Positions 4,560-63,958 of a stretch of DNA of 64,000 nt are shown here, one piece after another; positions within the stretch are counted from its first letter, which is position 1, and each line of letters opens with the position of its first letter. The notes beneath the pieces were generated by a model, which saw nothing but the letters and a program-made list of their open reading frames with translations, was not told the origin of the DNA and searched no databases. This DNA comes from Ginglymostoma cirratum (lineage: Eukaryota): NCBI GenBank assembly GCA_024137785.1, contig JAHRHZ010000009.1:27303874-27367873 (forward strand), read 5' to 3'. The translations under genes and the position numbers were made by a program.

Positions 4560-5030
4560 CAGAGATAGTAAGAGGTGCCAATGCTGGAGTCAGAGATAAC
4601 ACTGTGTGGAGCTGGAGATGGTTCTAAAGCAGGCCAGGTGACATCAGTAGAGCAGGAAAGTTGATGTTTTGGGTCAGGACCCTTCTTCAGAAATGGGGGA
4701 GGGGCAAGGGAGCTCCGAAATAAATAGAGAGAGGAGGGGTGGGACTGGGGAATGTGGGTGGGATGGTGATAGGTGACAGCAGGTAGGCAGTGGTGGGGTT
4801 TGGTCAGCGAGGTGGGAGGAGCAGATAGGTGGAAGAGAAGATGGATAGGTTGTGTCAGGTCAAGGAAGCGGGGATGAGAGGGAGGGTTGGTCATGGGATG
4901 AGGCCAGAGGGTTGGGGAGATTTTGAAACTGGTAAAGTCCACATTTAGGCCATTGGGCTGCAGGCTCCCAAGGCGGAATATGAGGTGCTATTCCTCCAGT
5001 TTCTGGGTGCATCAATGTGACACTATGCAA
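4560..5030 (-). mobile_element. Penelope-like retroelement 3' end: GIY-YIG endonuclease C-terminus plus tail with hammerhead-like motif
   Basis: Minus strand encodes QKLEE*HLIFRLGSLQPNGLNVDFTSFK, the PLE endonuclease C-terminal LxPxGLN motif. A pyrimidine-rich UTR follows, then CTGAAGAAGGGTCCTGACCCAAAACATC at ~4663-4690. Confidence 0.8.
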
Positions 5031-6609
5031 CATTGTGACATTATAGAAATGGTTGCGGTTATGGCAAGTATGCATGCTTACCTTCTAAAATGATCTTTCT
5101 TGAAAAAAATATTTACTGTCCCTTTCTGAAATGATAAAACTCTCAATTGTAAGTTTTACCTTAACAGATGTATATTTGAGATATTTTCATAATGTTCCTT
5201 CAGATATCATCCTAGCAGAGATTAAACATATTTAAAATGGATGGATTAACTGCTGAAAACTCACTTTCATGTTAACCGTTAATTTTGTTTTGAACCATTA
5301 TGCTAATTAGACATGAGTGTAGAAGAAGTGTACATGTTTGCAAACATTATAACATAAAACTCGCATCGCAGAAAAGATAAGAGTGTTGTTTATTTTTGCC
5401 TGAATACCTTGTGCTTCATTTAATTCCAAGCATGTGATAATTAATCTTTGTCCTAGTTGCCAACCCTGTTTGAATGTTGTTTTTGGAAATTCTCTGCTTT
5501 CGTAAACAGTAAAATTGTTAAGGTCCAGTTTTGAGGCATAGTTGTGACTTTGGATTGATCATCTCAAGTATTATTTTAATTTATTTTAATAATATTTATA
5601 CTGTTCTATTGTAATGAAAGGATTACACTGGCAGTAGGAAAATGTTCCAACAGGCTTGCATTTTGGTTTTTGAGAGCACAACTTGGTGAGTTGAAGCTGG
5701 AAATTCATATCTAAATACTCAGATTCTCAAAACTCAGTTTAATACACAACCGAGCTTGTGGGGTGATATTCTCAACTCTTGGTGCGCTGTTTACAGAATT
5801 ACTTAACTGTGAGTATTCTTCTTTCGAAACAAGCTGTTGAAGAAATCCATTACCTGGCTGACACCTTGAGCCAGATTTTTATTTCCAAGGCAGGCATCTT
5901 GAGTTGAAACATTTCCTGGTTTGAAAGACATACCTCAGATAAATTGCCACAACCGTCTTCATTTAGATTCCAGAGGAGTGGGTAAAGAATGGTGGCGGAC
6001 CCACTGTTCCCAGGTGTAAATCAGAAGTGGCCCCAGGGGCTACTGAGCAAAGGATGGGTTGTTTACAGGCCCACTTTGGTTCTCTGAAGCTTCATCTCTA
6101 TTGTTTCATTGAACATTAAGCCCTCTAGTGCTCACACCCCTTCAACTCCCCATCTACTGACTGTGTTCCTACATGGTCAACTAATGCCAACCCTTGCTCC
6201 TATCCATTTTATACCTATGCCAATTTAGTGCTAACACATACAAAACCATGACTCACCAACCACTTCTCCTACACCCTCCAAGCTAATTCACCCCATATCT
6301 ACCATAGGCAGACCTCAGGAGCCATGCTAATGCAAAATAAATAAAGTTTTTAATAGTTACTACAAAGTTCACAATATAAAAATAACATATTCATGAAAAC
6401 CTATTCAATACAGTTAAACTCTCTTGAGTATATAAAAATCTCTTGTAAAAACATTAGTATTTGTAATCCTATATCAAAGATAGCTAATTCTTTAATAACC
6501 TTTTTCAGCTGCCAATCAAATTTACAGTCAGCCACTCCCCCCTCCCACCATGATAATGTTAGATTGTGAAAAACGGCCAAGTATTAAATATATATTATGT
6601 AAGTACTTA

Positions 6610-7361
6610 GGGCTGAATCTTACCAGAAATCAGTGAAGTGTCAATTTTAGTGAGTCGTATGGAGGGTTTTTCTCTCTGAGGCCTAGCAAGTCTTTTCGGT
6701 CTACTTTAGAAAACTTGCATCATTAATAACATGATATGTTCCATGGAGCACCACTTGTCATATTCTATGACTAACCACAAACAGAAATACTGACTACTGC
6801 CAGAACGTTGCAGAATTCCTGGCACTTTAAAGCCCGGCCATGGACTCAGTGAAACACTAAAAGGCTACAGCTGCCCTGAAAGGTTTGTGGTATTTGCCCC
6901 AAACATGTGAACGAGGGCAATTGGCAACTCATTTTGCTGATGAGAACCTGGAGGTCTTGCTGGCTTGGGGGAGCGTACAGTCGCTGCTAGTGGAGTGTAA
7001 CCTGAGATCATTGTACCTGATGGAGGTCTCCAGGAGCAAGTAGCAAAGTGGTGTTGCTAGGCTACTACTCTGACTTGCATGAGGCGAATTGATGCTCTCT
7101 AGTTTCTATGCCAAGGGAGAATGGGAAACTGCGAATCCATGAGGTGAGGTTACACAATAATGAATTATCAATGGATGTTAATGCATGCAAATAATCTTCT
7201 TCCACTCATTAGTGAGAATCTCATCTCACGGTCCAATATTTGGTTGGAAAATTGAATATTTTGGTGTCGATGTTGGGAAGGTCCTCACTGCTAATCTCAG
7301 GCAAATCTTTGAACTTTCTTACCAATATGCATGTCACTCAGGGGCTGGGAAGATTCTGCCC
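6610..7361. mobile_element. PIF/Harbinger-like non-autonomous DNA transposon
   Basis: Terminal inverted repeats gggctgaatctt (6610) / aagattctgccc (7361) with TTA and TGA flanks (3-bp TNA-type TSD). An internal HFADENLEVLL relic resembles the start of a Harbinger Myb/SANT ORF. Confidence 0.6.
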
Positions 7362-15498: not shown

Positions 15499-17326
15499 AG
15501 ATGAACTGTCTTGCTCTAATTCAGAGTCAGTGATATTTGTACAGAGTCCTGGGAGCAAGCGTTTTGCCCATTGGAAGCACAGGCTTCCTGGGCAATTCCC
15601 TCAAACATTAGTGCATTGGGACTTTTGTATTGTTCGAGATCCAATTTTAGAGCCAATTTCAATGTTTTCAAAGCAGTATAATTACAATGCATCCAAGCAT
15701 TTTTAATCAGCTGACAGGCATTTAATGATTAGATTTTTTTTAATGGACGAAAGATAAATCAATTTCAAAATCAAGATTAGCCTGCAGTGCAATTGGACAG
15801 CATGTAATAGCAAAAGAATGTAAGAAATCAGTGGTGTGTATGAGATGCATGTTACTTTGTGCTTTCCTACTGCTATTTAGTCAACAAAAAACACACATAA
15901 CTAATTGTTTGTACTAGCATAGCTGTCAGTCCCTTTTAAAAATCATTTCCTTTGGAAACCTTTCAATATCCGTCACATAACCACTTGCTCAGCTGAGCAT
16001 GAAATGTTAACCTGCACACAATCTGCATCATTGAAAGAGAACAGCAGCCTGAAGTGCCTGGAAACATCTAAAGCAAAGCTATGAAGGATGCAATAATTTA
16101 CAATGTTCACTTGCATCTTTCTTAACAGATTAGCCTAGCCAATTACCGAGAGTAGATCTGATGTAAATGTCATTGTTGGTACAATTTTGAGGCTCAGACA
16201 TTCCCTCTTTAAAAATGATTTCAGTCTTGACCAACAAATCTGCAGGAAAGAACATTGTGAGGAAAGAGCATTGTGCACCTGTGACTTTTGGAATAGTAAG
16301 TTTATTTGCTTTCCCACCCCATTCACTAAAATGTCAGAACAGTAACTTTACTAAAGCACCACTTAATGAGACAAGAGCCAAACCATTACCTGTGGATCCA
16401 AGCGTAAAGGAAGGAAATTTCTACAGGATGGAGGAGAGAAAATCTGGATGCAAAGCCTAGAGGGATTCTTTCACTGGTGTGAGGAAGCACTAAATTGGAC
16501 TTTATGAAGCTTAAGGAGATCATACCAGCAATTAAATAGTATGCTTGACGTAGGAAGAGATCACAGAGACTGAAAGCGCACTAACAGCCACAAGCTGCAC
16601 TCCGAATTAATGGAGAAAAGGAACTGTAAGAACATAACTGAAGTACTTAGTACTGGAAAAATACCGTTGCGAATGACCTGAGCAACCTGTATGCAGCCAT
16701 CATGGAAATTTGTCATTTCACGCTGCTACAATACAAATAACAACAGAAGTTGTCCACTAACAGAATGCTACTATTAAACCAAAATGACATTATTCCCATC
16801 AAATGAGTAATATGATTGATGAATTTCAGTGCCTGCGTAATGTCAGGTATATAACAAATGACTAGTGGATCATATCTCTGCAACTGTACACAATAGATAC
16901 AGTAGTGACTGTATTCAATCAGCCTATTCCTTCAAAACTCAGAACGTAATACCTAACATCAGATGTGATCAGTGGCTCTTGCTGAACATTCATGGGTGCA
17001 CAAGAATTAGGTTAAAGACAAATTTATAAATTGGCTTACAATGTGGCTCATTGAAAATAGTGCTTGCATAAGTAGCAACAGGTCCTCTGCAGGAGAAAAG
17101 AAATATGTCTGAGTATCATACCTTTTTGTTTTGGATTAAACAAAAGCACGAGGCATTTTCTGTGGCAATACTTTGACCAATCAGAGTCGGCTTGCCAACC
17201 AATCGGCTGACTTTCTTCATGTAGTTGCTGCTCCTTTGAAAGTTGGCATTCTGTGTTTCAGTCCTGATAAGTGCCTGAAGAAAAGCTTTAACAACATAAA
17301 ACTGATTTTAGAGTTGACCAATCTAT

Positions 17327-17425
17327 AGTTCCGAAGAAGTCATATTCGACTCAAAACATTAACTTTGTTTCCCTCTTCACTGACTCCAGACCTGCTGATT
17401 TTCTCCTGCGCATTGTTTTCATTCC
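17327..17425 (+). mobile_element. Short Penelope-derived insert with decayed hammerhead motif
   Basis: AGTT-CCGAAGA-AGTCATATTCGACTC-AAAACATT-AACT, followed by the family tail ccagacctgctga. Confidence 0.6.
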
Positions 17426-17886
17426 ATTTGCAGATTGGTGAATATTGATAGATTTCACTTCCATGCTGAAGAACCTAATCTGTGATAACAGCTTTTCTAA
17501 TTCTATTTAATATTCTTCCAAAACTTTGATTTGTAGCATCAGAAGTATTACGTTTTGTGAATTATAAATCAGTCTCTTTCACCGCAATCAGTTTTCCTTT
17601 GTTTTGTTCTAACGTTAATGATTTTCATTCTTAGGCTTGCTTGTTGATAAATGCAAATGTTTTCTTCAGGTGTGATTAAGAACTCAAATAATACTAAATT
17701 AAATATTTTAAAAGATGTGAAGTATGTAAGCACTGCAAGGTGCCGTGAATTGCTGTCTTTTAAACTCTTGTCATTTGAAATTTGAACGCAGCCCAGAGAG
17801 ATCATGTGAAAATAGTCTCCAATTTATCTACAGGTGATAAGTTTAAGTATTTTGAATTAAATGGATAGAGTCAGTTGAACAATATT

Positions 17887-19269: not shown

Positions 19270-20100
19270 CAGTCTGAAGAGATAAAGTCCCAAAACCCCA
19301 CGGCAGGAACAACCTATTGTTCAGGAATATGCACCTGGAGGTCCTCTTTGAGACAGTGAGGGACAAGGATGGATTTCCTCCTCCCATCGTGTAGCAGGAC
19401 TAGGCTAAGCCAGCAAAACTATCAGGCTTGTAGAGACAGAGGCTGCTGTCAGTGAACAGACATAATGTGATTTGCAGAAATTGGATCCAGTGTCAGATAA
19501 AATTAACTGGCCAAATTTGACCAAATTTATAAAGTGAGTTCAAAGCAGACGGGCCTGAACAAGTGTTCACGCTACAGCAGACACTTTAGCTGAGGAAACT
19601 GAGGTGCACGTTGCCCCCAAACATGGGACCAGTGTGTGACGAGGTTACTTCCTGATGCCACCCAGAAGGCCTGGGAGTCTTTGTGCAGTTTTGAACTTGC
19701 CAGCGCTAAAGATATGTCACTTCTAATGAATAGAAGTAGCTGACATTGAGACAATAAGCACTGCAGATGCTGGAAGCCAGAGTATAGAGGGGTGAGGCTG
19801 GAAAAGCACAGCCGGTCAGACAGTGTCCAAGGAGCAGGTCATTCAACTTTTCGGGCCAAAATTGACCACAGAGATTTGTGCTGCCATATCCCTCTCTAAC
19901 TCTCTATGCCTTTTCTTTGTCCTTTCAGGTAAAAGAAAAACAGCCTTCTAGTGCCCAACACAGAATCCAGATGAGGGATGGGTTCGAGACCAATCTGTCA
20001 TCGCCACTTTGGAGGTGGAGGGCATGGACTTTACCAGAGTCACTAACCACATTGAAGTCGAGAAAGGTAGGATGAACCATGCTGGGGATGGGGATGAGGA
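19270..20100 (+). mobile_element. Harbinger-like transposon relic (Myb/SANT ORF)
   Basis: FRNMHLEVLFETVRDK and VNRHNVICRNWIQCQIKL resemble the Harbinger Myb/SANT domain (R.W.QC.KK.N). Interrupted by frameshifts and an inserted PLE tail at ~19750-19860. Confidence 0.5.
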
Positions 20101-21899: not shown

Positions 21900-24800
21900 T
21901 ATATTGTACACTCAAAACAAATGCTAGATGTGGGATTAGGTGACGGCTGTAGAGTTGTAAGAAAGTGCAGCTACTGACAAGGAGACACAACTATATGAAT
22001 TGCTTTGAGCCGCCACTAAAATAAATGAAACACTGGTTAAGAGAAAATAGTAGCAGGTTTTCCCCTTCCAGCTCCTGTTCTCTATTAGGGGATATGAAAC
22101 AAAACTGTCACTTCTTCCACGTGAAATGGCGGAACTATGAAGCAGCAATAGATTTGTTGAGCAAACCAAAAAAATTCCAAGTTGCCATAGTGTTACACTA
22201 TTGCTGTCTGTCTGTTTCCATTTCTTTATTGGGACTTTGTAGCAATTGATACAACTGAGTGGCTTGATAGACCTGTTCAAATGGTAGTTGGGGATGAACC
22301 ACATAGCTGTGGGTCTGGAGTCACATGTAGGCAATACCAGGTGAGGATGGTAAATTTTCTTCTCTAAAGGACATTACTTAACCAGTTGGTTTATTTCTGA
22401 CAATCAATAATGGTTTCATGGTCATCATTAGATCCCTAATTCCAGATTTTATCAAAGGCACGCTTTGACCCCCCAAGTGGATGTTCCATTTGAACAGTAG
22501 GCATTCAACATTGGGGAACAAAGTGTAAAAGCATCAGTTGATCAATTATGTAACTTCATTAACTCAGCTCTCAGAAACCTCTGATTTGCACAATTAAAGG
22601 ATGATCTATTTAAAAACAGGATTGAATTAGGCGTAGTTCAGGAGTGAAGTCATGGGTCACTGTGAGAGGAGGAACTGGAAGAGGAAGTGACGTTTGCAGC
22701 AGAGCTGAATTAACAGATAGAGCATAGTCATGTCAGAAAGACCTGATCTAGTACTATGCTGACAGATCCTCGTAGAAAAAAGAGGCAGAACAAACAGAGA
22801 CAAAATGAAAGATGCAAATACTACAAAGGGGCAGAAGGCATGGGGAAAGTAATGTTCTCGCATTTTCACTGCAAAAAGCCTAATCATTCTGCACAAAAGG
22901 GTCTGGCTAAAAAGGCACTCAACACACCAGTACAGATGGCCACTGGCAGATATTGGATGAAGATTCCGACGAATCAGTCTACACTGTACAACAGGTTGGT
23001 TCAGTCAAGTTGATAGGTGAGACAAAATTTATAACAGTTGAAGTGAGAACTGCAGAAAGAGAATATCAGCTAAACGTAAAATGTTAAAGACTGGCGCATG
23101 ATTCAATATCTGCTTCACAGACCTTTGTGAAGCAGCTCAATTTGGCATTCCAAAAATGAAACCCTCAAAAGTAAGATTAAAGCTGTAACGTGCCACCATA
23201 CTCATGCTGAGAAGATAGATTACTCTATGGCTAAAATTGAAATACTGCAGATGCTGAAATCTGAAATAAACATAAAAAATGCTGGATAAAGTCAGGATGC
23301 CTAGCTACATCTGTAGAGAGAAAAATAGAGGTAATGTTTTGAGTCTGATATGATTTCTTTAGAACTGTGGATCCATTCAAACAATATGATTGAGGATCTC
23401 AAGTGCCAGACCATAGATGGAAAACAAGTGCCACTCACCTCAATCGCCACAAGCCTAGAACTTGGATTGATAATGATTAATGTTCCAAAAGAGATTTGTG
23501 ATGTGTCGTAGCACATTAAACTCTTCACCATTGAACCACATCTCAGAGAAGTACAGTGAAAAGTTAACAGTTTTAGGAGGTCTTCCAGGAGACTACTATC
23601 TTGATGTAGCTGAGAATGAAAGACCAGATTAGCGTCTGCTGAGGGACATTCTGGCTATTCTCAAGGCCAGCCCGAAAGCCAAGGTAGAAGAGCTGGAAAT
23701 GAAGGAAGTAATTAAGAAAGTGAAAACTCCGACATTATTAGCATTAGCATGAAATTATTAGAATTTGCAGCATGGTGACAATGAAACAACTTGGAAAGCT
23801 GAGACTTTGCACTGAACTAAAGGTCTAAACAAAGCTCTGAAGAGATCTTACTGCCCCATACATATTGAAGAAATTTGGCACAATTAGCACAAGCAAAGAT
23901 TTTCCCCACACTAGCTGTGAAAGGTGGTTACTGACAAGTGAATCTGGATGAAAGCAACAGTTTTCAAACCACATTCAAGATGCTGTTCAGAAGATACAGA
24001 AGGTTGTGCATGCCATTTGATATTTGCAGAATGTATTTTTGTAGACAACATGAGATAGGCAGTTCTCTCCCTGAAGTGGCAGGTACAGGAGATAATCTGC
24101 TAGATTATTGACGAGGAGACTCAATGGAAGAAGCTATTGCTAGCCATGGTCAAAATCTAGTTTGACTCACCAAATGAACCTGAAGATGAATGAGGAAATA
24201 TTACAATTAATAATATCTGAAGTCAAATGCAAAGGCAATATATTGATAGCAGTAGGTCTTCACCTGGATCTCGAGAAAGTGAGAGTTGTAGCAGAGACCA
24301 ATAGGTGTAAGAGTGGTGCACCTTTTTTTTGGATTAATCAGCAATTTGACAGAATTCTTGTCCAATTCAAAGCAGAGAAAAAGAAACAGCATTCACTAAA
24401 ATCCAGCAATAGCGATGGCAATGCCAGTGCTGATATAATATGATGTAAATAATGATGGTACCCTGCAATGTGACACCAGTGAGACAAGACATGGTGCAAC
24501 CCTAAAGCAACAAGTTTCAACAGTTATATTTGGAGGGTTGACACAATCAGGCCAATGTTACGCATTGTCTTTATGATCATTTCCTTCAATACCTACCAGG
24601 AGGATACAAAGTGACACAAGCCACTTCAAACCATTTTCCTCAAGCCCATTCTGTCACCTCCAAGTATTTTCAAGGAACATTACTCTGGTTATAGAGATAT
24701 CCTCTGGATGTGACATAAAAGCAAGAGAAACAGAAGTATATTGCAGACCTGGTGTCAAGAGCTACATTCCCAATGAAGAAAATAGAGGATGTTATGATTG

Positions 24801-25700: not shown

Positions 25701-28700
25701 TTGGAAGGTCTAACTTCATTCTGAATGACCAAAAATGGCATACGAAGGGACCTGTTTGATGGATCCATCCAGTTGATGATGATATTCTTGAACTCTTTAA
25801 GGCATTCATCATCTGAGGCATTTTACTGAATCTATCCTTCTTGACTGTGATCAAAGCATGTGAGATTAATTTTGCAGTCTGAAATCTTTAGTTTTGAAAC
25901 CAATGGATTTATCACCTGATGGGTCGTAATAATATATAGATCTGTGCATATTGGCAGACTAGTAATGAGTGGTCTACCTTTCTCAATGGTTAATAAGAAA
26001 TAGGAACAGGAGTAGACCCCTCGAACTGAAGAGCAATGTAGTGATGTAAGAAGTTTTAAGTCAACATCCCAAGGATTAATATTTGAAGTTAAAATGGACG
26101 ATATCAGTGCATAGGATGTGGGACCCATGGTAAGCAGTTAGCTTATCCTTTGTGGACTGTACCACATTGTGCTGCTTTGTGAGCTCATCTCATATAAATT
26201 GCATAAAGGAATTCTATTTGTACTGGCATCAGTGCCAATTTTGTCATACTGTGTATGACTAGATGCCTATTCATTTTGAGATATACATTAGATGGAGATA
26301 AAGGTTTCAGTTTTTCTGACAGCATTCATATGGTGTTTTGAGTTAACCACCCTTCTGACTGGGGTCTGCATGTAGTAGCAGAAATATATTCATGTCAATA
26401 TACCTTTAAGAAACATACTCATGACATAGTTACTGTATCATAGAATGTGACCTAAATGGGTAAAGGTTTCATACGTCATCTTCACTTGGAGCCACTTGAA
26501 GCATGACAGTCTACTAGAAGCATGTATCTCTGTTGTAATCCAGTAATTTAATGTAAGCTCAGATAATAACATTTTTGTGAATGTGGTGTTTGTACATGGC
26601 TAGCCGTGTTAACTGTCTGTTGGTTTTTTTTCTAACCATGATATCCACATTTCTTATGTTTTGAGAAGTAACATAATCATGGCCACATCAAGTAACCTGG
26701 TGGGAATTTTTTTATTCATTCACGAGATGAGGATGTCACTGTCTAGGCCAGCATTATTACCCATTCCTAATTTCCAGAAGGCAGTTAAGAGTCAGTCCTA
26801 TTTTTTTCTGACAATTGGCAATGGATTCATAGTCACCATTGGACATTTAATTCCAGATTGTTTCTAAATTGAATTCAAATTCCAGCATCTGCCATGGCAA
26901 GATCTGAACCCAGGTCCTGAAGAAGGGTCTAGGCACGAAACATCAGCCTTCCTGCTCCTCTGCTGCTGCTTGGCCTGCTGCGTTCATCCAGCTCTACACC
27001 TTGTTATCCCCAGAACATTACGTGGGTCTGTATATTAACAATCCAGCGACAATATCACTAGGCCATCACCTCCCCAAATAACCCCAAAAGGGGTTAACTA
27101 TTGGACTTTACTGACATGCTCACATGCTATGGGTGGAATTTTGGATTCTTCTTTGGCATTTTTCTTTAGTTGGCCATTCTTCAGATGTTGCTGTGGCACA
27201 TTTTGATGTTTGTGCTTTTCTTTGGGTGAGTGGAATTCTGACACTTTTTAGCCAATATCATCTAATCGACCGTAGCTTTCACATGAACATACAAAATGCT
27301 GGGCACTGTCTTCGTAGCTGAGAATAATTCACATCTCAAACAAAATTTTGGATGTTGCACTGAACTTGTTGATAGCTCCAATGGTTAGTCCAGTGTAAAG
27401 CACTTACAGATGCTATTAGTCTTCTACAATTGCTTTGGACATTTGTCCTTCCAACTGAGCAGCAATGATATACTCGATGGGTTTATCCAAAAATGCTTTA
27501 CGAAAGGATTTGACGGATGTAGAGGAAATGACCAGTTCTAAATCCCTTTCAATTAAGTTAGCTTCAGTAAAATCATGTTCTGTCCCTTAGCATCGATTTC
27601 CACTTACAAACTGGTTGATCATTGAACCTGGCTGTTATCAGTATGACGTGAACTCAGGCCTGTATATTCTAAAATTGACTCAAACTTTAAGTTGATCTTT
27701 TAAAATCTGATATGCTTTGGCAAGGTCTTTTCAGTCATCAATGCAACTACTGCATGATTTTATTCTTCTCAACATCTTACTTCCCAAAGCAAGAACATTG
27801 ATTGCTTTTCTTTCTTTGTCAGTTATCTACAATTGCTGGTAAAGATTGATTTTTCCATTAAAAAAAGTGGAGTTCTGGCAGAACATCAATGGGTTTGCCA
27901 GTCTATCGTTAGGGAATTGCTTTCCATCTTTTTGCCAGTGAAAGAATCACAATTGCAGTGTGTGCTTTTCTGTGCTTTTGTTGGCTTCTCTGCTCTTTTC
28001 ATTTATTACTGAAGATTTAAAAGTTGCTGCTCCCGTAAAAGTTGTAAGCTTGTGCCTGGATGCAATTTCTGTCTGAGAGAAGCAGTATTGACCTCACATA
28101 TACATTTGTTAAAATGTTTTCGTAAAAGTAAAACAGCAGAATCAACTAACGTCCTGAAACACATAAGGCCTCTTTAATTTATTAAATTGAACACTTTATT
28201 GTAGTGTTTTCTCCTCTCTGTATGTTAATTCAGGTTTGCTTGCTTAGTCTGGGGATGTTTGTCAACTTTTAAACAGCTGGTTTTTGGAATTGGAGCTATC
28301 CTGCCCTCATGTTAAAAAAAAGTTCTGTTTTTTTGGAAGATAGGAAGAAAGATCAAGTATTCACTGTGCTTCAACACAGGTTTGTAGCCTTTAGATTTGG
28401 TTATCACACTTCCACATTGGTTGTATTTGTAGCTTTCAAATGGACTGAGACAAATTGATGAATGACTATTTACAACTGCACACTGCTGCCACATTTTCAA
28501 CCTTCACTTACTGCCACTAAATAGCTGTCAATAACTAGGTTTGAGTGCTGACTTGCTGTGCTATGATATGCTTTATTGTTTTCAATATGTTACTTAACAT
28601 AATGTATACTTAAAAGATTTCGGTTCTTGTTGAGATGTATGTCTCAAAGTTTACGTACAACACAATTAAACGACTACACTATCACACGCATACATATATA

Positions 28701-28840: not shown

Positions 28841-29040
28841 TAACTCTCCTCCTAAATGTGCGGGTCTGTCTGGTCTGGAGTCTATGCAATATGCAATAGA
28901 CCTTCACTTATTGCTCATCATCCTCATCAGCAGCAGGATGGGGCCCTTAAATGGGCATTAAGAGACCACTTAAGGGCTTCAATTTATGACAGGGTGGTAA
29001 AGCCACAAAAGGTCATTTTACACCAGACTTAATTGGGGTT

Positions 29041-46037: not shown

Positions 46038-46244
46038 ATTTGGAGATCAGGATATGTAGTGCCAGGGCTTGGTCAATGGTTTGATAGCCTTAGATCTCCA
46101 AGGACTTTCAAGATATCATAGCTGATTGTGAAAGCGTGATTAAACTGGTTTGGCAGAAATGTTGCCATCACTTTCAACACTGAAGACAGCTCAGACTGCA
46201 AGAATCAGCTAAGTTCGCTGTGAAGCATAAGCACAAAACAGCCA

Positions 46245-46372
46245 TTTTCTGAAGAAAGGCCCTGACCCGAAATGTCAGGTTTCCTGCCCCTCTGATGCTG
46301 TCTGGCCTGCTGTGTTCATCCAGCTCTACACCTTGCTGTCTCAAACTCCAGCATCGGCAGTTCCTACTATCT
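46245..46372 (+). mobile_element. Short Penelope-derived insert with 11-bp TSD
   Basis: TSD caaaacagcca / caaaatagcca (46234-46244, 46373-46383). Begins ttttCTGAAGAAAGGCCCTGACCCGAAATGTC and ends gcagttcctactatct. Confidence 0.8.
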
Positions 46373-49258
46373 CAAAATAGCCAATAAGTAGTACACTTCT
46401 ATTGAGGCAGTGAACAATGTAATAACTGAAGTGTGCAATACAGCTTGGTGAATGAGTAACTGTGGCAGATACAAGTTTGATATTAGATGTTGAGATGACT
46501 TAGAAGAGGCAAGTTGAAACAGAATGTTTCACTTCCTTATTTTCCCAGTAAGTGTCCTCAGTAACAGAGACAGAGGTCATTGCAAGCAAGGAGCAATTCT
46601 CAAATAACAGAAATTTGGAAGTGAACATGTTCGTTTTATTCATAATGTAATCATAGGGAATGAATGAGAGTCTAAACCAATCAACATGTTCAAGTAAAGA
46701 GTCTACATTGTTCAACACAAAACTACAGGCAGCTAAGAACAAAAATCTGTTGACAGAGATTGAAGATGTGGTGTATACAACTCTATGGAGGCCACAACTC
46801 AGAAAGGACAACCAATGGCTAATGATTCAAAATACTGCAAAAAAGAAATCTCCTCTTTTATCAATGATGATATTCCCCATGAAGGAAACCCAAGCGATTA
46901 AAGGTCCTCCTTGTTTGAAGTGGCCTATTGATATCAGACTGTTAGGAAAAGGATCAAAGACAACAGTCTTCCACCTAGCAAATTACCAGCCCACCAGTCT
47001 GAAGAGAATACAATCAAGAAAAATCATGAAACTCATAGATCACTTGAATTTGTAAAGTCAGACTTGGGGAGGAGATGGGATAGTGATGAATGAAGCATAT
47101 ACATCAATGCGCTTGAGCGGCGATATTGTATACAAGCCTCAAAGGGTTAATACAGAGCAGTGCCATTTGCATAACACACCATGATGATATCATATGGACA
47201 TGTAGGCAGAACAGCTTAGGATCTTGGTGGAGTATAACCTAGTTTCCAGACACCCCTTCAAAGTGTCTGTAACAATGTCTATCATATCAACATAACCTGT
47301 AATTATTTACTAACACGGAATAAAGTAGATTTTGTCAACTTTCAGGGACTCTTCTAGTTAGACTTCAGTGTGATTTTCCTCTACTGCAATAAACTATGCA
47401 GACCCTGTAGATCCCTATGCTTAAAGATGATGGTAGCAGCAGATCTATCACATTGTGGGGTGCAGACTTAGTTTAGCTGCACATACAAGTCAAATGACCT
47501 TCATCTGTGTTGTAACCATTCCATGTCGCTGTGATTCGATGAGAAACACAAATATTTAAAAGAAAATGAAGAACTTTGTAATTGTCTGTGGGCTGGAATT
47601 TATACTCACCCACCAGTGAGTTTAAAGGTGACTGGGGCAAATTTTCACTGTCACTCGCCCACTCATGACTTTTCTGCAATTTAATGGGAACACTTGACAG
47701 CTAGCAAGGGCCTTATTCTGCTGTCATCAATATCTTTACTGCGGAGCCAAGCAGGAAGACCAGCAGCTTTAGCTCTGTGCGGATGGGGTGGGGATCAGCT
47801 ACCTCCTTTGAGAACCCCATGGAACAAGTGGAGGATGTCCCACATCCCCACCCCTCCAAGTTGAACCCCCACATTTAGACCTCCACCCTGCCTTTTGAAC
47901 ACAGCCTCCCCAATCCTCTCTCCAGGGCAGGCCCCAGTGAGATACCAGAGGTACCTGGGCTTCTTAGTTCCTTGATGTCCCGGCAGTAGCAGTAGCTGGC
48001 TTTCACTAGCGCCAGTGAAATTACAGAACTACAGCTAAGTGGCTTGGTCAGCAGTTATCTAAGATAGCACTTCTTCCTGAGGTAAGGCAGATGTATCAAC
48101 TTAAAGCTTTTGATACTGCTCCCAGCATTAAATTGCTGCAGGGTAGTCATTCAGATGATGGGATAGCTCCCCTCTACTTTTTTAGCCGGAGATTGGTTGG
48201 ACTGGTAGTGGGATCGGGACCATTGTAGCCTTTTGGAATCAGCCTTATGAGTTGTCTCGCTGCACTCTGCAAATTTATTCCTGGAGATCCAGGTCAACTG
48301 TGGAAAGTTGCCAACTGTACCATCCATACTGTAAACATGCTGGCTGTAAATTTGCTGGGATTGCAGCATGAGCCTTTATTACTCTTGAAAAATTTTTGGC
48401 AATGGAGAGGGAGCGACCCTCTTGAAAGTCCCTGCAGTCATTTTACATTTCTAATGTGGTGGAGTGAATTTCATTTTTGGTAATACAAGATCTGACAGAG
48501 CTGGGAAAAATATTCACTTTTTGGAGTCCACAGTCAACACAATACATTCTTAGGTTAATTATTGCATAAAATAAAAGCAGACAATTTACAATGCAGAACA
48601 GAGTTGGTATTTTTCACCACAATTTTTCTAACTATCTTATTTCAAATTGTAGTGGTTGTGCACAAATCTTTTCGAACTTGGGCTGCATTCATACTATGGG
48701 GTCATGGTAACAAAGAATGACTTTCCACTGTACAAATCAGATCTATATTCAAACTGAAGTGAAACAGGTGTGTCATAATAGACCTTAACTCAGTATACCC
48801 TCTGATTGTGAATAATGTTTCATGGGGGAATGAAATTCTACAGAGAATGCGTCATCATCCTAGGAATATTTCTAAACATTGATAGTACTTTAAATGTACA
48901 GGACAGAAATGAAGCTCCAAATGCTGATACATGTGGCGAGTACATAAGCATGTGAATGATAAAAGGCATTTGAGGAGTCTTTCTCCAGAATGCAATTCTA
49001 TCTTAAACAGTCCGTTCCTACTCAAACACCCAATCCAAGAAACTGGTTGTCTATTAAAATTCTGTGATTTTATTAAAGCATTTAATGTAATATTCTGTTT
49101 GGTTAATTTTATGAATTAGTTAACTTGCAGCAATTTACTCAGGTAGTTGTCACTTTGCTACATGGTTGTAGACTAAACTAGCTGTACTCTGACCAAATCT
49201 GATCAGAAAAGTGTATTGCTTAATATTGTCCATAAATAAAAATGATGGATCCACATAC

Positions 49259-49899: not shown

Positions 49900-50390
49900 T
49901 CTGCAATCCAGGCCCTTGGACTATGATCCAAACAAATGAATTTAAATCTAATCAATTGAATAATATTGGAAGACACAGCTATCAATAATAGTGACTATGT
50001 AACTATTCGATTGTAAAGCAAAACCATCTGATTGATTAACATCCTTTAAAGAAGGACAATTTCCATCCTTGACAGATAGTAGGAACTGCCAATGTAGTTT
50101 TTCTGAAGAAGAGTCCAGACCTGAAACATCAGCCTTCCTGCTCCTCTGATGCTACTTGGCCTGCTGTGTTCATCCAGTTCTACACCTTGTTATCTCAATT
50201 TCCATCCTTACCTGACCTACATGTGACTTCAGCAACGTGACTAAATCACTTCTCTCTATGAACATCTAACAAATTACCCAGTGGTACTTAAGAAGACAGT
50301 ACCTTACTCCTGTCTCAAGGACTAACAGACATCAGCAATAATTGCAGGATTAGCCAGTAATGAACATATCACACAAATGAATAGAAGTCA
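49900..50390 (+). mobile_element. Decayed tRNA-head SINE with nested Penelope-derived insert (50071-50195, 14-bp TSD)
   Basis: TSD caatttccatcctt at 50057-50070 and 50196-50209. The insert has an inverted tail piece agatagtaggaactgccaatg, then CTGAAGAAGAGTCCAGACCTGAAACATC. Confidence 0.75.
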
Positions 50391-51300: not shown

Positions 51301-52211
51301 TCCTAGATTCTAAGACTGCTAGTGAACAAGTAATGGAAAGTTGGAAAGATCTTTGAATCCTATTCTTGGGACAACAACCAAACTTGGCGGTTTTACAATA
51401 GGCACTAATTGAAAACACAGCGTAGGTTAGTTTAACTCCTTCTTTAGCCTAGTGGCATAATGTCTATGAATAGACAGGCATCCCATATAGTTCTATACTT
51501 TGCTACATTCTTTAGGACTATACCAACTTTAATAGTGTATCAGCAGTGCATCAGTGTGGCAGAGACTAATGTTCAAAACTGTCACCAAGTTATCCCCAAA
51601 GCAGTCCCTGGGCTGAAGAAGAGCTAAAAATCAGCACTTCAAATTGTTCTGACCACCACCAGTAGCAGACCTATAATTATCAGCGCTTCACCCTAATATT
51701 ACACAATTCAAAGTGCCTTCTTAAGGAAACACTCAAATTTGCTTAGAAATTCAGCTGCATATACAACAATGTATAAAGTTTCTCTGTCTGCAAATTAAAG
51801 CCTGTTTAAATAAGTTAGGGCCTTGCATAAAGAGAAATTTCATGGGAATGCATAAGTATGATTGAAGTCATACTGTATGATTCCAGCCCCAACTCTGTAA
51901 GTGCATTGCTGGATGTTTTTAATTTTTTACAATTCAAGTAGGCATAGTGTGGCAAATTCAGTAAGGCACTGCACCTGATTCAAAAAAGCTCAAATAATCA
52001 ATCTGAAGCCTTCAACACCCGCCCACCGCCATCTGGCAGCATCAACTCACTGGCGTTGACACAATATTAAATTTCACATACAATGTTGTGTTATTTCAGC
52101 AAATTCATGGAAATGATCCTTCAACTTATTTTCATCTGTAAGTGATACACTATCCTTAACCCATTCCCATGAATAAAGGCATCTTAATCTGGCACTGCTC
52201 CTTTCTGAATT

Positions 52212-52310
52212 AAAACAGAAGTTTCTGGAAAAGCTCAGCAGGTCTGGCAACATCTGTGAAGGAGAAAACAGAGTTAACATTTTGGGTCCGGTGACCCTTC
52301 CTCAGAACTT
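52212..52310 (-). mobile_element. Short Penelope-derived insert with near-intact hammerhead fold
   Basis: TSD-like ctcctttctgaatt / ctcctttgggaatt. Minus strand 52309-52272 reads AGTT-CTGAGGA-A-GGGTC-ACCG-GACCC-AAAATGTT-AACT. Confidence 0.8.
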
Positions 52311-52730: not shown

Positions 52731-53638
52731 GCGGATAAGCAGTTTTTTAAAGTATTGATGTGATCTGAGAACTACATATAAATGTCAAATAACATTCAGC
52801 GAGATGTATCGTACAGCTCCAATGCTTTGTGCTGTTGAGACGACAACAAGAACAATGAAAAAAATTTACATCATTTCAACATAAAATGCTTTGAACATTA
52901 TTCTTTTCAATTAGTATAATTTAGTGCTGATAGCTGCTGTTGTTTATAGCTTTCATTTTTCCAAAGACTGGAGTGTCAAAGTCAACGACATTGAACAAAA
53001 TGAAAAGAGAACCGAAATAAGTGGGCAGAAAGAGAAAAGAAAAATTCAAACCCATTTAAAGTGATCAGTAGAAGAAGATGTTAAAATGCAAACAGCACGT
53101 GTGGTGTTTCAAATGGTGAAATGCACAACGAAATTCAAAGCAAGGTCATATTGACTAGAGGAATAAAAATTTGGCACAGAAGGAAAAATAAATCAAGTTC
53201 ATTTCATTCCAACAAATTTACTTCTGCAATTAATCCCAGGAGCTATCCACCAACATCCTTATTCTACACACCATAAATCTCTAAAGCTACTTCATTAGTA
53301 AGTTCCATTAGATTGAAATCTTTTAAAATGCAAGAAAAAATGGGTTGAATTGTCTAGGGATTATTCACTGCTAGCAGGAGAAAAGAAATTGCATTTATAT
53401 GGCATGTTATCACATTTTTGAGCAAATCCTAAACTAACAGGTTAATATTGAAAGTGGTCATGGTTATGCAGATATATTCAACTTACGTTCACATAATGCC
53501 TTTAATCTAATAAAACATCCCGAGGCACTTCACAGGAACATTGTCAGTCCACATGAAGAGACAATGGGGTCGGATGACAAATCATGGTCAAAAAGACAGG
53601 TTTGATACAGTGTCTTAAAGAAGGACATCCAATTACAG

Positions 53639-53818
53639 CAATTGTTGGAAAAGCTCAGCAGGTCTGGCAGCATCTGTGGAGAGAAATCAAAGTTAAAGTT
53701 TCAGGTCGAGTTTTGAGGAAGGGTCACAGATGCTGCCAGATCTGCTGAGCTTTTCCAGCAATTTCTGTTTTTGTTTCTAATTTACAGCATCTATAGTTCT
53801 TTCAGTTTTTATTTGTCT
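53639..53818 (+). mobile_element. Penelope-derived insert with inverted arms, nested in L2
   Basis: aattgttggaaaagctcagcaggtctggcagcatctgtg and cacagatgctgccagatctgctgagcttttccagcaatt form an inverted pair. TSD tccaatta(c/g)ag at 53628 and 53819. Confidence 0.8.
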
Positions 53819-54422: not shown

Positions 54423-55419
54423 AAAGAGAAATGGGACTTGTTGAGAGGTAAGACACAGGCAACAAAGCTTTATATGGCCTCAAGTTTAAGGAGGATAGAA
54501 TGTGGGAGATTTGCCAGGAGAGTATTGGCATAGACAAGTCTAAAGGAAACTAAGGAAACATTGAGGCTTCAGCAACAGATGAGCTGAGGCAGTGATAATG
54601 TCCAGCAAACAGAGATTAAAAATAGGCAGTCTTACTGATGCCAGGAATGAGGTTGGGGACTCAGATGTGACACCAAACTTTATTTAAAGAATGCCTTAAT
54701 CTCGGACTGCTGCCAAGGACAGGGGTGGAACCTATATCTGGGGAATTAAGTTTGAAGTGTAGACTGAAAACAATGGTTTCCGTCTTCCGATTATATAATT
54801 GGAGAGCATTACTGCTGATCCAATATTGGCTGTCAGAGAAGCAGATTGATATTTTAGCAACTGTGGGCAAGTTGAGAGAGATGTTGGTAAGGTAGAGCTG
54901 GGTCATCAGTGTTCAAATAAAAAAAAATGCTTTCCTTCAAATGATGTCACCAAGAGGCATCCCATGGATGAGAACTAAGAAGAGGGAATGGATAATTCCA
55001 TTAGGATAGCAGAGTTGAAGGTGCAGGAGCAGAAAAAGTCATTGCAAGTGGTTTTCTGCCTGTAGTTAAACAGAAGAGAATGGATCTAGCTGAGACCAGT
55101 CCCACCCAGTTGAATGAAGGAGGAGAAACATCAGAGGAGGACGGTGTGGTCAACCCTGTCAAGGGTTGTAGACAGGCCAAAAAGGATGATGCTGGAAAGT
55201 TTACCTTTGTTACAGTTACTTAGGCTGACGTTTCAGATTTTGATAAGAACCAGTTCAATACTGTGACGGGGCAGACTGATGATTGTAGGATTCAAGCATG
55301 GAGTTTTGAGAGAAATATGAATGGACCTAGGAGGTGACCACACACCCAAGGAGTTCAGGGATGAAAAGGAGGTTGGAGGAGGGACATTAATTTGCAAGGT
55401 CAGAAGTATTTAGGAATAA

Positions 55420-55640
55420 AAGGGAAATACTGCAGATACTAGAAACCTGAATAAAAGCAGAAAATGCTGGGGAAACTTAGCAAATAACTAAGAACTCAAC
55501 GGTTATGCCAGAATCTGTAGAGGGAGAAACAGAATTAACTGTTGAAGAGACATATTGGAATCAAAATGTTAACTCTGTTTCTCTCTCTACAGATGCTGGC
55601 ATAACCGTTGAGTTCTCCAGCATCTTCCTTTTTTTTTATT
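55420..55640. mobile_element. Older Penelope-derived insert with inverted arms
   Basis: ctcaacggttatgccagaatctgtagagggagaaacagaattaac and gttaactctgtttctctctctacagatgctggcataaccgttgag form an inverted pair around a decayed hammerhead centre. Confidence 0.7.
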
Positions 55641-58200: not shown

Positions 58201-58418
58201 TCAAAAATCACAATAATACCAGGTTATAGCCCAACAGATTTATTTGAAATCATATGCTTTCGAAGCGTAGCCCCTTCATCAGGTGACTCACTTCACCTGA
58301 TGAAGGTGCTATGCTCCAAAAGCTTGTGATTTCAAATAAATCTGTTGAACTATAACCTGGTGTCATGTGATTTCTGACTTTGTCCACCCCTGTCCAACAC
58401 CAGCAATTTCACATCATG
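58201..58418. mobile_element. Palindromic Penelope-derived insert with two back-to-back hammerhead motifs and 12-bp TSD
   Basis: Inverted arms of ~85 bp around a ctcact loop (~58286-58291). TSD gcattcagtaag at 58189-58200 and 58419-58430. Confidence 0.85.
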
Positions 58419-58514: not shown

Positions 58515-58620
58515 TTTTCTGAAGAAGGGTCCAGACCCGAAGCGTCAGCTTTCCTGCTCCTCTGATGCTCCCTGGCCTGCTGTATTCCTCCAGCTCCACA
58601 CCTAGTTATCTCTGACTCCG
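58515..58620 (+). mobile_element. Short Penelope-derived insert
   Basis: ttttCTGAAGA-A-GGGTC-CA-GACCC-GAAGCGTC-agctttcctgctcctctgatgct..., the same tail as 46245-46372. Confidence 0.8.
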
Positions 58621-60974: not shown

Positions 60975-61207
60975 GTTTACACACAGAGGGTGATAGGTCC
61001 TTGGAATGTGCTGCCAGGGCAGGTCATAGAAGCAGATATGACAGCAATGTTTAAGGGGCACTTAGACAGACACATGTACAGGCAGGAAATAGAGAGGTAC
61101 AGACCACATGCAGGCAGATGGGATTAAGTTTAGGATAGGTTCGTGGTTGGCACAGACATGGAGGGTTGAAGGGCCTGTCTCTATGCTATACTGCTGTGTT
61201 CTATGTA
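60975..61207 (+). mobile_element. CR1 LINE 3' end nested in L2 remnants (~60700-61640)
   Basis: YTQRVIGPWNVLPGQVIEADMTAMFKGHLDRHM and tail gggttgaagggcctgtctctatgctatactgctgtgttctatgt. Confidence 0.85.
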
Positions 61208-63841
61208 CTGCTGCATCTGATGCATTAGCCTTGACTTTTGTCTTCATAGATTTCTGCACTCCCAAAGCTCTGCTGCCTGTTAGCCATGCATCATCAAGTT
61301 TGTTTGCCCTCTCCTGAAGGATGCAACAAACTTGTAATTCATTTTTAAGTTTAAATCCCATCGTAGTCTTGGTCCTTCCTAACTCTCTAATCTCATGCTA
61401 TGTTATAACCTTTTCCAACAAACTGTAATTTTCTCTGACCATTTCACCTCTAGACCTTACGTTTCTCTGTTTCTTTAAAAGTCGAATTAAACCCAATCCA
61501 TTGACAAAACATGTGGTTATCCCTTCCAATCTTCCCTTTCATAAATTTATGTGTGGAGGATCTTTTCTGTTTCTCTATATTAAAAGGTGCTACATAAATA
61601 ATATCAACAGAATGAGGTAAAGTGCTGCTTTTAGGATTTTCTATCCAAAACACAAGTAACATTATTGAAACGTAAAGCAGCATTTTGCTTGCTAAGAACT
61701 TTTAAATAGTGATTATTAGCAAATTATATGCAATAGTGGGGAAAAGAGATAATGGAAATGACTACTAATCTTGGTGTCCTACCTGCTTGGCAATCACGAA
61801 GATTTCAAAGTATATTTATAGCAATAAAGTTGTTATAGCAGGAAGGTAGGGTTTTCAGTAATCCTCGTAAATTAGTGCACCTTCATAGCAAAGGTGGAGG
61901 AAGTGAACATCTGAAGAATTTAAATAGATTCCATTTTACAGAGCATGTAGGTTCAAATCTGCCCTCAGCTACATTTGTCAATGTGTTTAGATTGCATTGC
62001 TAAAAGCTAATACACATACATGTTCAGAAATGCTTTGCAGGCTGTCAGTAGGATTCTTACTGGTGGTCAGGAAGAGCTGTAATTCTTGTTTACTGGGCAG
62101 AGGTGGAGTAAAATGGTAAAGCATCAGAAGAAACATGAAATAAAAATAAATGCTGACAGCATGAAAGAGTAGTTACAAGAATTATAACTGATTTAGGAGA
62201 ATATCAATATACATCAGTTCAGGCACAACTATCTTGCGCTGCTGGCACGTTTGATTTTCTATTCATGTTCACCAGATAGTTTCACATTACTATCTCAGTT
62301 TGGAAGTTGTCCTTTGATCAAGATGAGTAAGCAAGTTGTCATAACATACTACCATCTTCAGTTCCATTTCAGATTCTAGGCACTGCCACACTGTGCCTCA
62401 GTTGTACTAACTGACACATTAAGCAGACAAGATCTTGGTATCTGCTGCCGCACACCTGTGGTTGACTCCTGATTAAAATGATTACATTTAGGATGAGTCC
62501 AGTCATGGTGATCCCATCATTCTGAGAATATCAAATGATGTGTTTGTGGGGAATATGAGTTATGTACAAGTTTGGAACGCAGCCAAAGAACAAATAGGCC
62601 AACTTTAAAATATAGGTGAACAACAGTACCACGGATGATAACAAATGGATATCAGATATATTTAGAGGAACATTAAGAGCAAGTACTTTTTGATACCACA
62701 CTTGCATTTTAAAAGTCAAGTGACCATACTTTTTCAAGCTGTGAGGAAGCAAACATAAAAAGTGAAGAAAAGAAAACGTGAATTCAGAAATTGTTGCACT
62801 ATTTAAGTTATACATCAACATTTTTCCTTATGGTTTGCACATGGCAGAAGTGCAGGTATTTATTAGAATGCTCTACAATCTGCAAACCTGAACAAGCATT
62901 TTTAATATGAGTGATTGTTAATTTTTATTAAAATGAAACTGGAATTTCCTGCAAAATCTCAGGGTATCATCACCCATATATGATAACTGGATGCATTAAC
63001 ATAAACAATTTTTAAAGTACACAATACAAAATATATTATCTTAATATTCAAAATATTTCATATATTCATAATTCTCAACATTGATATTTGTCAGTTTAAA
63101 CAGTTTATAATGTTTAAGTTGAAGGTTTTTCTCACCCCCATGAAAAGTACACATACACATCTCATTGGCAAGAACTAATAAAATTGGAATTTGGAAGCAT
63201 CTCTAACAAAGTTTTGCAGCAAATAAATTCTGCTAATAATAAACCATGCCCTTGCTGGGTGCTAAGATTGATGTAACTTCTTTTAAATTTTGCACAGTTT
63301 TAAAACAGAAAACGCTTTGCATTGCTATCAAGTTTAAAGGCTGTTGACATAATGAAAAGACATAATGACATATTGACAAGAGCAGTACACATTCTTTTCT
63401 GACTTCTTGGACATTGCAATGACCATGCAGTGGAAATGTGCTACATGGATCAAACAGAATTTTCACAATTTCAATTTAGCTGTCTCAAATTTTAAAAAAA
63501 ATGTACTGTCACAGCCAGGCATTGATGAGTACATCAATGTTTGGGGCATGAAAATAAATTACAAGAACGTTGTTAATGCTATTATGTGATATTTCTACAA
63601 TTTATGCTAGATTGGCTGATTAGAAGTTCCATATAGCTAACATTTCATTACCTGCTTGTCATCAATACCTTAGCTCTAATGAAGAGAAGTCTAGAATGTA
63701 AACTAAGTTTGCATCGATAAAGTAATGCTGTAGGATTCAATTATGTAAATATGCTATTCTGATATTTTGTTGCAATACAGTACAACATACAGCTGACAAC
63801 ACCTGAGATATAATGCAGGCTGTGCTGGACTGTAAATCAAA

Positions 63842-63958
63842 ACATAAATAAATAAATAAAAAGTTTTCCTGTTCCTATGATGCTGCTTGACCTGCTGTGT
63901 TCATCCAGCCCCATGCTTGTTATCTCGGATTCTCCAGCATCTGCAGTACCTTTTATCT
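63842..63958 (+). mobile_element. Short Penelope-derived tail insert with 12-bp TSD (no hammerhead core retained)
   Basis: TSD ctgtaaatcaaa at 63830-63841 and 63959-63970. Tail gatgctgcttgacctgctgtgttcatccagc...ccagcatctgcag. Confidence 0.75.

Follow-up and report, generated by a model that had tools for sequence, protein, structure and literature searches.

Probable Penelope-like inserts with decayed minimal hammerhead motifs in a shark genome

Introduction

The closest described counterparts of the sequences discussed here are the minimal hammerhead ribozymes of metazoan Penelope-like elements (PLEs). The motifs treated in the available sections of Cervera and de la Pena (2014; PMC4209133) share with the shark copies a CUGANGA box followed by an extra nucleotide, a helix II with G10.1-C11.1, a GAAA box, a palindromic 15.2-16.2 segment, and a short helix I; they too fall into many sequence families per genome, occur mostly as single motifs from truncated elements, and include close opposite-strand pairs. 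The shark copies differ in being decayed and in having a helix II of 4-5 bp rather than the 7-8 bp of the schistosome families in those sections, and the 56-motif alignment given there draws on lamprey, teleosts, coelacanth, frog, turtle, and snake, with no cartilaginous fish.

Further likenesses are with endonuclease-bearing (EN+) PLEs. As far as the accessible text of Arkhipova et al. (2013; PMC3846280) and Craig et al. (2021; PMC8557442) goes, these share 5' truncation, a head-to-head inverted 5' copy, a 30-40 bp tail at one end only, as well as a GIY-YIG region at the C terminus, and their target duplications are 8-10 bp long and sometimes absent; nearly all of the shark inserts, in contrast, retain only the terminal repeat. 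Published accounts of PLEs in other species have an RT/GIY-YIG protein nick the DNA, with reverse transcription from two internal sites yielding an optional tail, and describe hammerhead cleavage as weak and dimer- or protein-dependent. In PAc/Poseidon of Anolis (Frangieh et al. 2024; PMC11167929, available in part), two 3' end positions follow the hammerhead by about 100-130 nt, as in the shark; the tail there is the distance between two reverse transcription start sites, and the main template is uncleaved RNA. The PAc ORF starts inside helix II, whereas no conserved start codon is evident there, by eye, in the shark copies. Animal non-LTR retrozymes, in the accessible part of a preprint (bioRxiv 10.64898/2026.07.22.740005), likewise have a type I hammerhead, a PLE origin, and dispersed monomers, but they are defined by tandem units that each carry a complete hammerhead, and none occurs in the stretch analyzed here. 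PLE expansion in introns has been reported for the whale shark.

Repeat inserts in the window

We analyzed a 64,000-nt stretch of the Ginglymostoma cirratum genome (GCA_024137785.1, contig JAHRHZ010000009.1, positions 27,303,874 to 27,367,873, forward strand), here called the window; inserts were examined inside it only, and all counts are of within-window copies. Self-BLAST and nhmmer over the whole window recovered 16 short inserts, ~1 per 4 kb, in family A (n=8), family B (n=7), and family C (n=1). An earlier note, made from the sequence alone, had listed 13 insert positions at about one copy per 5 kb; all 13 lie inside genuine repeat copies, the density was about right, and the inserts at 19746, 53636, and 63842 are three additional to its list. 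Families A and B are related (63-67% identity), and family C is unrelated to both outside the ribozyme. A tRNA scan of the window returned none, the 7 tandem arrays detected in it (all periods 2-23 nt) include no array of the insert unit, and the window holds no partial tandem with two pseudo-LTRs around a full ORF.

The longest family A copy (4559..5015, minus strand) is laid out as a 5'-truncated PLE: ORF end, ~220-nt spacer, hammerhead (4657-4696, minus), downstream repeat, and long tail. Its ORF remnant (4913..5008), on the same (minus) strand as the hammerhead and containing an in-frame stop, comprises the last 32 recognizable codons of what appears to be the C terminus of a GIY-YIG-like endonuclease region, and over 32 aa it matches P0001, a predicted protein, at 84% (E 5e-8). 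Upstream of that match, P0001 carries RT-like and GIY-YIG-like motifs as read by eye; its Pfam values are E 0.048 for GIY-YIG and E 0.16 for reverse transcriptase (Atlas, 0.93), and its Atlas neighbors, GIY-YIG/HTH_animal and RVT_1 clusters at 0.93-0.94, are leads only. Reverse transcriptase was seen only in P0001, a chimeric gene model whose N-terminal part looks LINE-like on our own reading. At E<=0.001, 23 library proteins match the remnant; for 19 the match spans the N-terminal 25-34 residues of the remnant, at 68-93%. Pfam, run on 14 of the 23, gave no GIY-YIG match, and P0078, P0089, P0091, and P0100 among the 23, plus P0088, look like unrelated repeat-protein matches. No full-length PLE protein scored among 21 candidates, and no solved structure in the PDB matched. 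Because the Pfam GIY-YIG score is below the cut-off, we regard the support for a C-terminal GIY-YIG ORF upstream of the 3' repeat, on the same strand, as moderate, and it concerns family A only; family B is tied to PLEs by its homology to A, and family C by motif and architecture only. The ORF remnant, the motif, and the insertion architecture together support the earlier attribution of PLE sequences with minimal type I hammerhead motifs to this shark.

Hammerhead core and its decay

The CUGANGA and GAAA boxes, with G10.1-C11.1 and a UH cleavage site, are present in 12 arms, which retain 10-13 of the 13 positions of the minimal-hammerhead core; these 12 are the basis of all pair and core counts, and arms with one box missing (19858, 29092, 53713, 55539, 63862, and four inverted A/B arms) are excluded. 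Twelve of the 14 motifs originally listed have both boxes in register, but 29090 and 55540 have lost the 5' box where an inverted arm joins, and CTGANGA is exact in 8/14. The "extra A" after CUGANGA is there in 12/12 parsed arms and is part of the published 2014 consensus.

Among the family A arms, the core scores 13/13 at 26917 (26915..27008, plus strand; short 3' end; within another repeat), 12/13 at 46249 (46243..46373, plus; long tail) and 58519 (58515..58619, plus; 3' end at +101), and 11/13 at 31908 (31784..32123, minus; long tail); a diverged arm at 19746..19858 (minus; long tail) starts inside helix II (+15). The single family B arms score 12/13 at 36203 (36071..36208, minus; long tail) and 52305 (52205..52310, minus; helices I and II fully paired; short end), 11/13 at 17331 (17321..17436, plus), and 10/13 at 23362 (23232..23372, minus; long tail), with helix II out of register in the last two, where its 5' strand is 2 nt short.

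How far could chance account for such motifs? A score of 12 or 13 of 13 is reached at nine places in the window, every one of them within a repeat; 10 dinucleotide shuffles yielded 0-2 such sites each. The strict bare descriptor gave 2 matches, 1 of them in a repeat, versus 0-1 in 12 shuffles, and the relaxed one 9 versus 3-10 in 12 shuffles; it is weak, not discriminating once mismatches are permitted. CTGANGA alone occurs 52 times (39+/-6 expected). The proposed check against Rfam hammerhead models came back negative, with no hammerhead even at E<=10 in the window or the two best loci (18, 10, and 4 matches).

The earlier statements that no copy is intact and that most changes are CpG decay both hold. 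Intact hammerheads number 0/12: in the sole 13/13 copy (26917), helix III is broken and decayed, and there are mismatches in both other helices; 16/24 core and helix III changes are CpG decay, 7/15 core changes fall at C11.1-G12, G12 is lost in 6/12 parsed arms, and CA or TG replaces the helix III CG in 9/10 A/B copies. Across the three families, all catalytic letters are kept. Selection for RNA structure, which had also been proposed, is unproven: copies decay through the catalytic core, and 2/60 non-CpG core positions depart from the family A majority, versus 40/341 in the downstream repeat (p=0.064, not significant). Any selection would have worked on the source elements, not on the window copies.

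Helices and covariation

Several of the helix sequences given in the earlier note need amending. Helix II of family A has 4 bp, not 5, because 5 bp would leave a 2-nt loop; the A of the reported family C stem II, GG(A)GC, is in neither arm (GGGGC and GGTGC); and the helix III palindromes AACGTT and AAGCTT are intact only at 29092-29117 and in the 58297 arm, respectively. Family A has a helix III of the 4-nt ACGT type. ACGT itself is intact in the 29092 arm and AGCT in the 58297 arm; elsewhere they are CpG decayed or one change off.

Helices I and II are each paired in 35/48 cells, compared with a 38% background; most family A copies have a weak helix I (16/24 cells), and helix II is paired in 8/16 family B cells. 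Between families B and C, helices I and III change sequence yet remain paired. Permuting hand-parsed strands gave p=0.008, driven largely by the single family C insertion. Pair counting on a MAFFT alignment was negative (414-484 of 500 shuffles as high), but the family C rows stood one column out of place and one of the pairs involved a gap column; since the alignment was misregistered, this automated test speaks neither for nor against covariation, which is suggestive only. By monomer folding energy, no arm beat its shuffles (z -1.03 to +1.05, 12/12), and the full helices I and II formed the minimum fold only in the 52305 copy among the 12 arms folded.

Insertion architecture

There are two 3' end positions, separated by 30-41 nt (about 32 in A, 35 in B, and 41 in C), the interval that constitutes the PLE "tail"; in family A, 3/8 main arms end at +92 to +101 and 5/8 at about +125. 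Five of the 16 inserts are head-to-head inverted pairs, and in 5/5 the tail is on exactly one arm. Four of them have no single strand. In family B, these are 29040..29221 (inverted arm 29040-29095, short end; main arm 29092-29221, plus, starting at +7, long tail), 53636..53818 (inverted arm to ~53711, short end; main arm from ~53709, plus, with an internal deletion after the helix II 5' strand and a long tail), and 55417..55637 (inverted arm 55417-55539, long tail; main arm from ~55540, plus, short end). In the family C pair (58201..58418), both arms start at helix I (-4), the cores at 58282 (minus) and 58297 (plus) score 12/13 each, and a 41-nt tail is on the plus arm only. The family A pair (50071..50195, plus) combines an inverted piece that is tail alone (50071-50094) with a main arm of core 12/13 at 50103 and a short end.

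Target duplications of 10-14 bp flank 4/16 inserts (chance 0.7% or less each): 14 bp at the family A pair, 12 bp at the family C pair and at the family A arm 63842..63958 (plus; long tail), and 10 bp at 36071..36208. Two more are weak (chance 8-23%), with 7 bp at 52205..52310 and 8 bp at 53636..53818, and 10/16 inserts have no convincing duplication.

The 5' edge coincides with that of the ribozyme, at helix I, in 12/16 main arms, which are just 90-140 nt long. Only 1/16 starts at the predicted cleavage site: in the arm 63842..63958, homology begins at 63862, the first base past that site, after a 20-nt A-rich run. Two family A copies, 31784..32123 and the longest one, extend 215 and about 320 nt upstream, one of them into the ORF, and have the same 3' ends as the short copies. 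For family A alone, the significance of the 5'-edge clustering depends on the null chosen (a uniform null gives p=0.003, exponential nulls 0.03 or 0.33). In total, the 5' edges, with one at the cleavage site, and the one-arm tails suggest that uncleaved RNA was the template for the shark copies.

Proposed explanation and alternatives

We posit that the inserts are, very probably, dead, 5'-truncated copies of endonuclease-bearing Penelope-like retrotransposons, consisting of the pseudo-LTR end of three source families. The source RNA would have carried a minimal type I hammerhead with CUGANGA, the extra A, a 4-5 bp helix II, GAAA, an ACGU/AGCU palindrome, and a short helix I; its helix III would not close alone, and cleavage would need a second copy. 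Most copies would derive from uncleaved RNA, with copying ended at the 5' edge of the ribozyme; neutral decay would have followed insertion, and the present copies are unlikely to cleave.

Could the motif instead be a catalytically dead relic, kept as a protein-binding or promoter/RT-stop signal, with no cleavage even in the sources? The weak helix I of family A would fit, and so would the helix II that is short by 2 nt in the same way in two family B copies, as would reports, in the text available, that ribozyme-dead mutants of the anole PLE insert normally in vitro and give no reads ending at the cleavage site (PMC11167929) and that Naiad PLEs proliferate without canonical hammerheads (PMC8557442). 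However, three families keep every catalytic letter, helices I and III vary while still pairing, the scissile bond is the start of one copy, and related PLE motifs are reported to cleave weakly, as dimers or with protein; we consider a dead relic rather unlikely.

Or are the short arms a non-autonomous family in their own right (SINE-like or retrozyme monomers), with its own short transcript and mobilized in trans by a PLE protein, as opposed to truncated copies of the full element? Their length and common 5' edge at helix I are what such a family would show, and the accessible part of the retrozyme preprint (bioRxiv 10.64898/2026.07.22.740005) describes non-LTR retrozymes as PLE derivatives with dispersed monomers and finds them in the one chondrichthyan sampled. 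Against this, the unit forms no tandem array in the window, two family A copies run far upstream with the usual 3' ends, and a self-cleaved monomer would start at the cleavage site, as a single arm does. This reading seems unlikely to us.

The window also contains an EDNRB-like gene (best-identity match, epaulette shark, 96%), and individual inserts might be active or host-selected ribozymes acting on its transcript. The family B insert 36071..36208 is within the last intron, and 9/16 inserts lie 5' of the last exon and would be intronic if exon 1 is beyond the window; their orientations relative to the gene are 2 sense, 4 antisense, and 3 pairs, which are few. Such a role is very improbable, given that no arm is intact and half have lost G12, that density is similar off the gene (7 in 34 kb outside versus 9 in 30 kb inside), and that head-to-head arms on opposite strands leave one sense ribozyme per transcript and no dimer in cis. 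That ordinary repeats resemble a short, degenerate motif by chance is barely credible: the relaxed descriptor, Rfam, and folding energy offer this reading some comfort and same-family copies are not independent evidence, but three families, one unrelated outside the motif, fit a consensus already published for this element class, the motif is placed and oriented as expected with respect to the ORF, and the independent PLE evidence refutes chance in substance.

Returning to truncated PLE copies, we speculate further that the hammerhead mainly marks and pairs templates, cutting not being its main job, a model that as a whole is a long shot. Reverse transcription would begin at two internal sites and stop at the helix I 5' strand, either at the RNA 5' end or by stalling at a ribozyme dimer; the ACGU/AGCU palindrome would join two RNAs, and a dimeric PLE protein would copy one RNA per nicked DNA strand, one from the long start site and the other from the short. 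This would explain the fixed 5' edge, the pairs inside one target duplication, and the one-arm tails. In the openly readable literature, subscription papers aside, we found no prior description of it. If true, it would dispense with the antisense self-priming proposed earlier, and shark genomes would offer very many natural product records for testing it.

Implications

As judged from sequence, the finding is largely real: the shark inserts appear to be of a known kind, and the association of PLEs with minimal hammerheads would extend to sharks. In the literature searched, we found no description of minimal hammerhead motifs of shark PLEs. The regular starts and the pairing of pieces may be new information on PLE insertion. 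The 5' edges and tails of many copies would be a cheap genome-wide test of how PLEs integrate and what the ribozyme does. In coelacanth and Xenopus, the published counts come to about 4,000 and 9,000 motifs, respectively, with a descriptor that would miss decayed copies; if the density in the window is typical, such copies would be very numerous in shark genomes.

Decayed hammerhead motifs in three repeat families

The data outlined below indicate that the window holds a real and dense set of decayed ends of Penelope-like elements (PLEs) that bear a known minimal hammerhead. Self-BLAST and nhmmer in the window recovered 16 short inserts in three families, A (n=8), B (n=7) and C (n=1, the sole insert being an inverted pair); A and B are related, with 63-67% identity downstream of the motif, and C matches neither. 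Six A arms share a mean pairwise identity of 79% and six B arms one of 68%, so that the copies are either old or of multiple origin. When every window position was scored on the same 13 core positions, nine sites reached at least 12, all of them within the repeats, compared with 0-2 in each of 10 shuffles; minimal hammerhead motifs in dense repeats, as the earlier note proposed, are largely borne out. Core positions and pairing were counted in the 12 arms that still carry both boxes (CUGANGA and GAAA). Each has 10-13 of the 13 core positions, and an A directly follows CUGANGA in 12/12. As the note also held, no arm is intact (0/12) and CpG decay is evident: CpG transitions at C11.1-G12 account for 7 of the 15 core changes, and the helix III CG is gone from 9 of 10 A and B arms. 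Three results weigh on the other side: a bare descriptor with mismatches gave a window count inside the shuffled range, Rfam returned no hammerhead match at E<=10, and no arm had a better folding energy than its own shuffles.

How do these motifs compare with published ones? The metazoan PLE consensus presented by Cervera and de la Pena (PMC4209133) comprises CUGANGAH, a G..C helix II, GAAAN, a palindrome and NUH, and a conserved nucleotide between 9 and 10.1 is pointed out there; the "extra A" once offered as distinctive of the shark copies was therefore already known. That account describes mostly single motifs from truncated elements, plus opposite-strand pairs, with no cleavage of PLE hammerheads as monomers and low cleavage as dimers; its motif alignment is without cartilaginous fish. 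A whale shark preprint describes Penelope-like elements expanded in introns (10.1101/443036), and a 2026 preprint reports PLE-derived retrozymes in its one chondrichthyan (bioRxiv 10.64898/2026.07.22.740005). The window inserts lack the tandem units by which retrozymes are defined and on that count fall outside this class. In the literature searched (subscription papers and repeat databases excepted), we found no description of these shark motifs.

Host locus and neighboring repeats

The window is of shark origin. One exon, at 49259-49465 (-), matched endothelin receptor B structures in a structure search, and the highest identities among 76 database hits were to sharks (96% for Hemiscyllium ocellatum, 91% for Heterodontus and 90% for Cetorhinus). 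Six exons of this EDNRB-like gene lie on the minus strand, running from 49701 down to 34438 with 95-100% identity to the H. ocellatum protein. Residues 1-132 have no match anywhere in the window, and thus the first exon probably lies beyond position 64000.

Self-BLAST also revealed a separate ~300-nt repeat family (15190-15499, 30049-30327, 54087-54420 and 55688-55892), which we take to resemble shark HE1/V-SINE. Around one SINE-like copy sits a MITE-like element with 146-nt inverted arms at 78% identity (29845-29990 and 30400-30546). A LINE-like reverse transcriptase fragment (18047-18977 [-] and 45605-45701; Pfam RVT_1, E 0.075) is presumably of the CR1/L2 type. A 300-nt dispersed repeat pair lies in opposite orientation at 200-498 and 46533-46829 (68% identity), and a small repeat family occupies 12648-12724, 22390-22456 and 26801-27060; its copy at 26801 was the target of the hammerhead arm at 26917, which inserted without a clear duplication.

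Identity of the elements

The architecture of the inserts is evidence for PLEs that is independent of any reading frame. Relative to C3 of the ribozyme, the main arms of family A have their 3' ends at +92 to +101 (3/8) or about +125 (5/8) and the arms of family B theirs near +91 to +101 or +131 to +137; in family C, one arm runs 41 nt further at its 3' end than the other. Head-to-head inverted pairs make up five of the inserts, and in 5/5 the longer end is on exactly one arm (chance 0.03, assuming independent arms at one half). Flanking duplications are 10-14 bp at four inserts, weak (7-8 bp) at two and not convincing at ten. PMC3846280 and PMC8557442 characterize PLE insertions by a tail of 30-40 bp that is optional and confined to one end, by a truncated 5' copy in inverted orientation and by duplications of variable length; all three features occur among the shark inserts.

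The longest copy, 4559-5015 (-) in family A, has a broken reading frame at its start. This remnant (4913-5008 [-], with X for stop) matches the predicted protein P0001 at 84% over 32 residues, and it also matches 23 library proteins, most at 68-93%. By eye, the matched part is the C terminus of a region with GIY-YIG-like motifs, with RT-like motifs upstream; Pfam gave E 0.048 (GIY-YIG) and E 0.16 (RT) on P0001, whose Atlas neighbors fall in GIY-YIG/HTH_animal and RVT_1 clusters. Given that P0001 is chimeric and that no full-length PLE protein was found among the candidates examined, the reading frame is moderate evidence for a PLE.

The family C pair (58201-58380) forms a ~85-bp hairpin that miRNA precursor models scored by shape only; intronic hairpins of this kind could give rise to small RNAs.

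Pairing and constraint

Helices I and II are each paired in 35 of 48 cells, against a background of 38%. For the co-varying stems of the note, the evidence is suggestive. Family B (helix I AGUU/AACU, helix III palindrome ACGU) and family C (UCAC/GUGA, AGCU) differ in sequence yet pair, and when strands are swapped between them only 0-25% of helix I remains paired. With the 3' strands permuted across copies, 74+/-4.6 pairs formed versus 87 observed (p=0.008), which is suggestive of compensatory pairing because the signal comes mainly from family C (one insertion) and the copies are related. A column-shuffle test, run on an alignment in which the family C rows were misplaced, gave no excess of covariation. 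Helix I of family A is weak (16/24 cells paired), and variation in this family is lower at non-CpG core positions (2/60) than in the downstream repeat (40/341; p=0.064). Relative to 36203 and 55545, the family B copies 17331 (+) and 23362 (-) lack the same 2 nt from the helix II 5' strand; they may form a subfamily whose ribozyme is altered or dead.

Insertion mechanism

In 12 of 16 main arms the 5' edge lies at the helix I 5' strand, from -10 to +7; in families B and C, six edges were set by a duplication or inverted-arm junction and two by mutual similarity alone. Of the other four arms, two carry 215 and about 320 nt of upstream sequence; a third starts at +15, and the fourth at +29, immediately past the predicted cleavage site. 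Since a self-cleaved template would start at +29, the shark copies were probably made, as a rule, from uncleaved RNA. Clustering of family A edges has p from 0.003 to 0.33, depending on the null. The edge may mark a transcript start, or else a stall; in Drosophila Penelope, the transcript is described as starting 46 nt upstream of an intron that extends to helix I.

A 20-nt A-rich run at 63842-63862, within a 12-bp duplication, precedes the only arm that starts exactly at the predicted cleavage site. Self-cleaved RNA to which bases had been added could have given rise to this arm; alternatively, the run could be a microsatellite grown at that spot.

How might both ends be made? An earlier proposal derives head-to-head pairs from self-priming on an antisense template (PMC3846280), which may hold for the shark pairs as well. 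In the anole element as described in PMC11167929, a protein predicted to dimerize nicks both DNA strands, reverse transcription starts from two internal RNA sites whose spacing corresponds to the tail, the ribozyme cleaves only with protein, and insertion is equally efficient when the ribozyme is dead; the shark copies are consistent with this scheme. In our boldest reading, the helix III palindrome would pair two templates for double-ended insertion. The main interest of these inserts is that their regular 5' edges and one-tailed pairs constitute a testable record of PLE integration.
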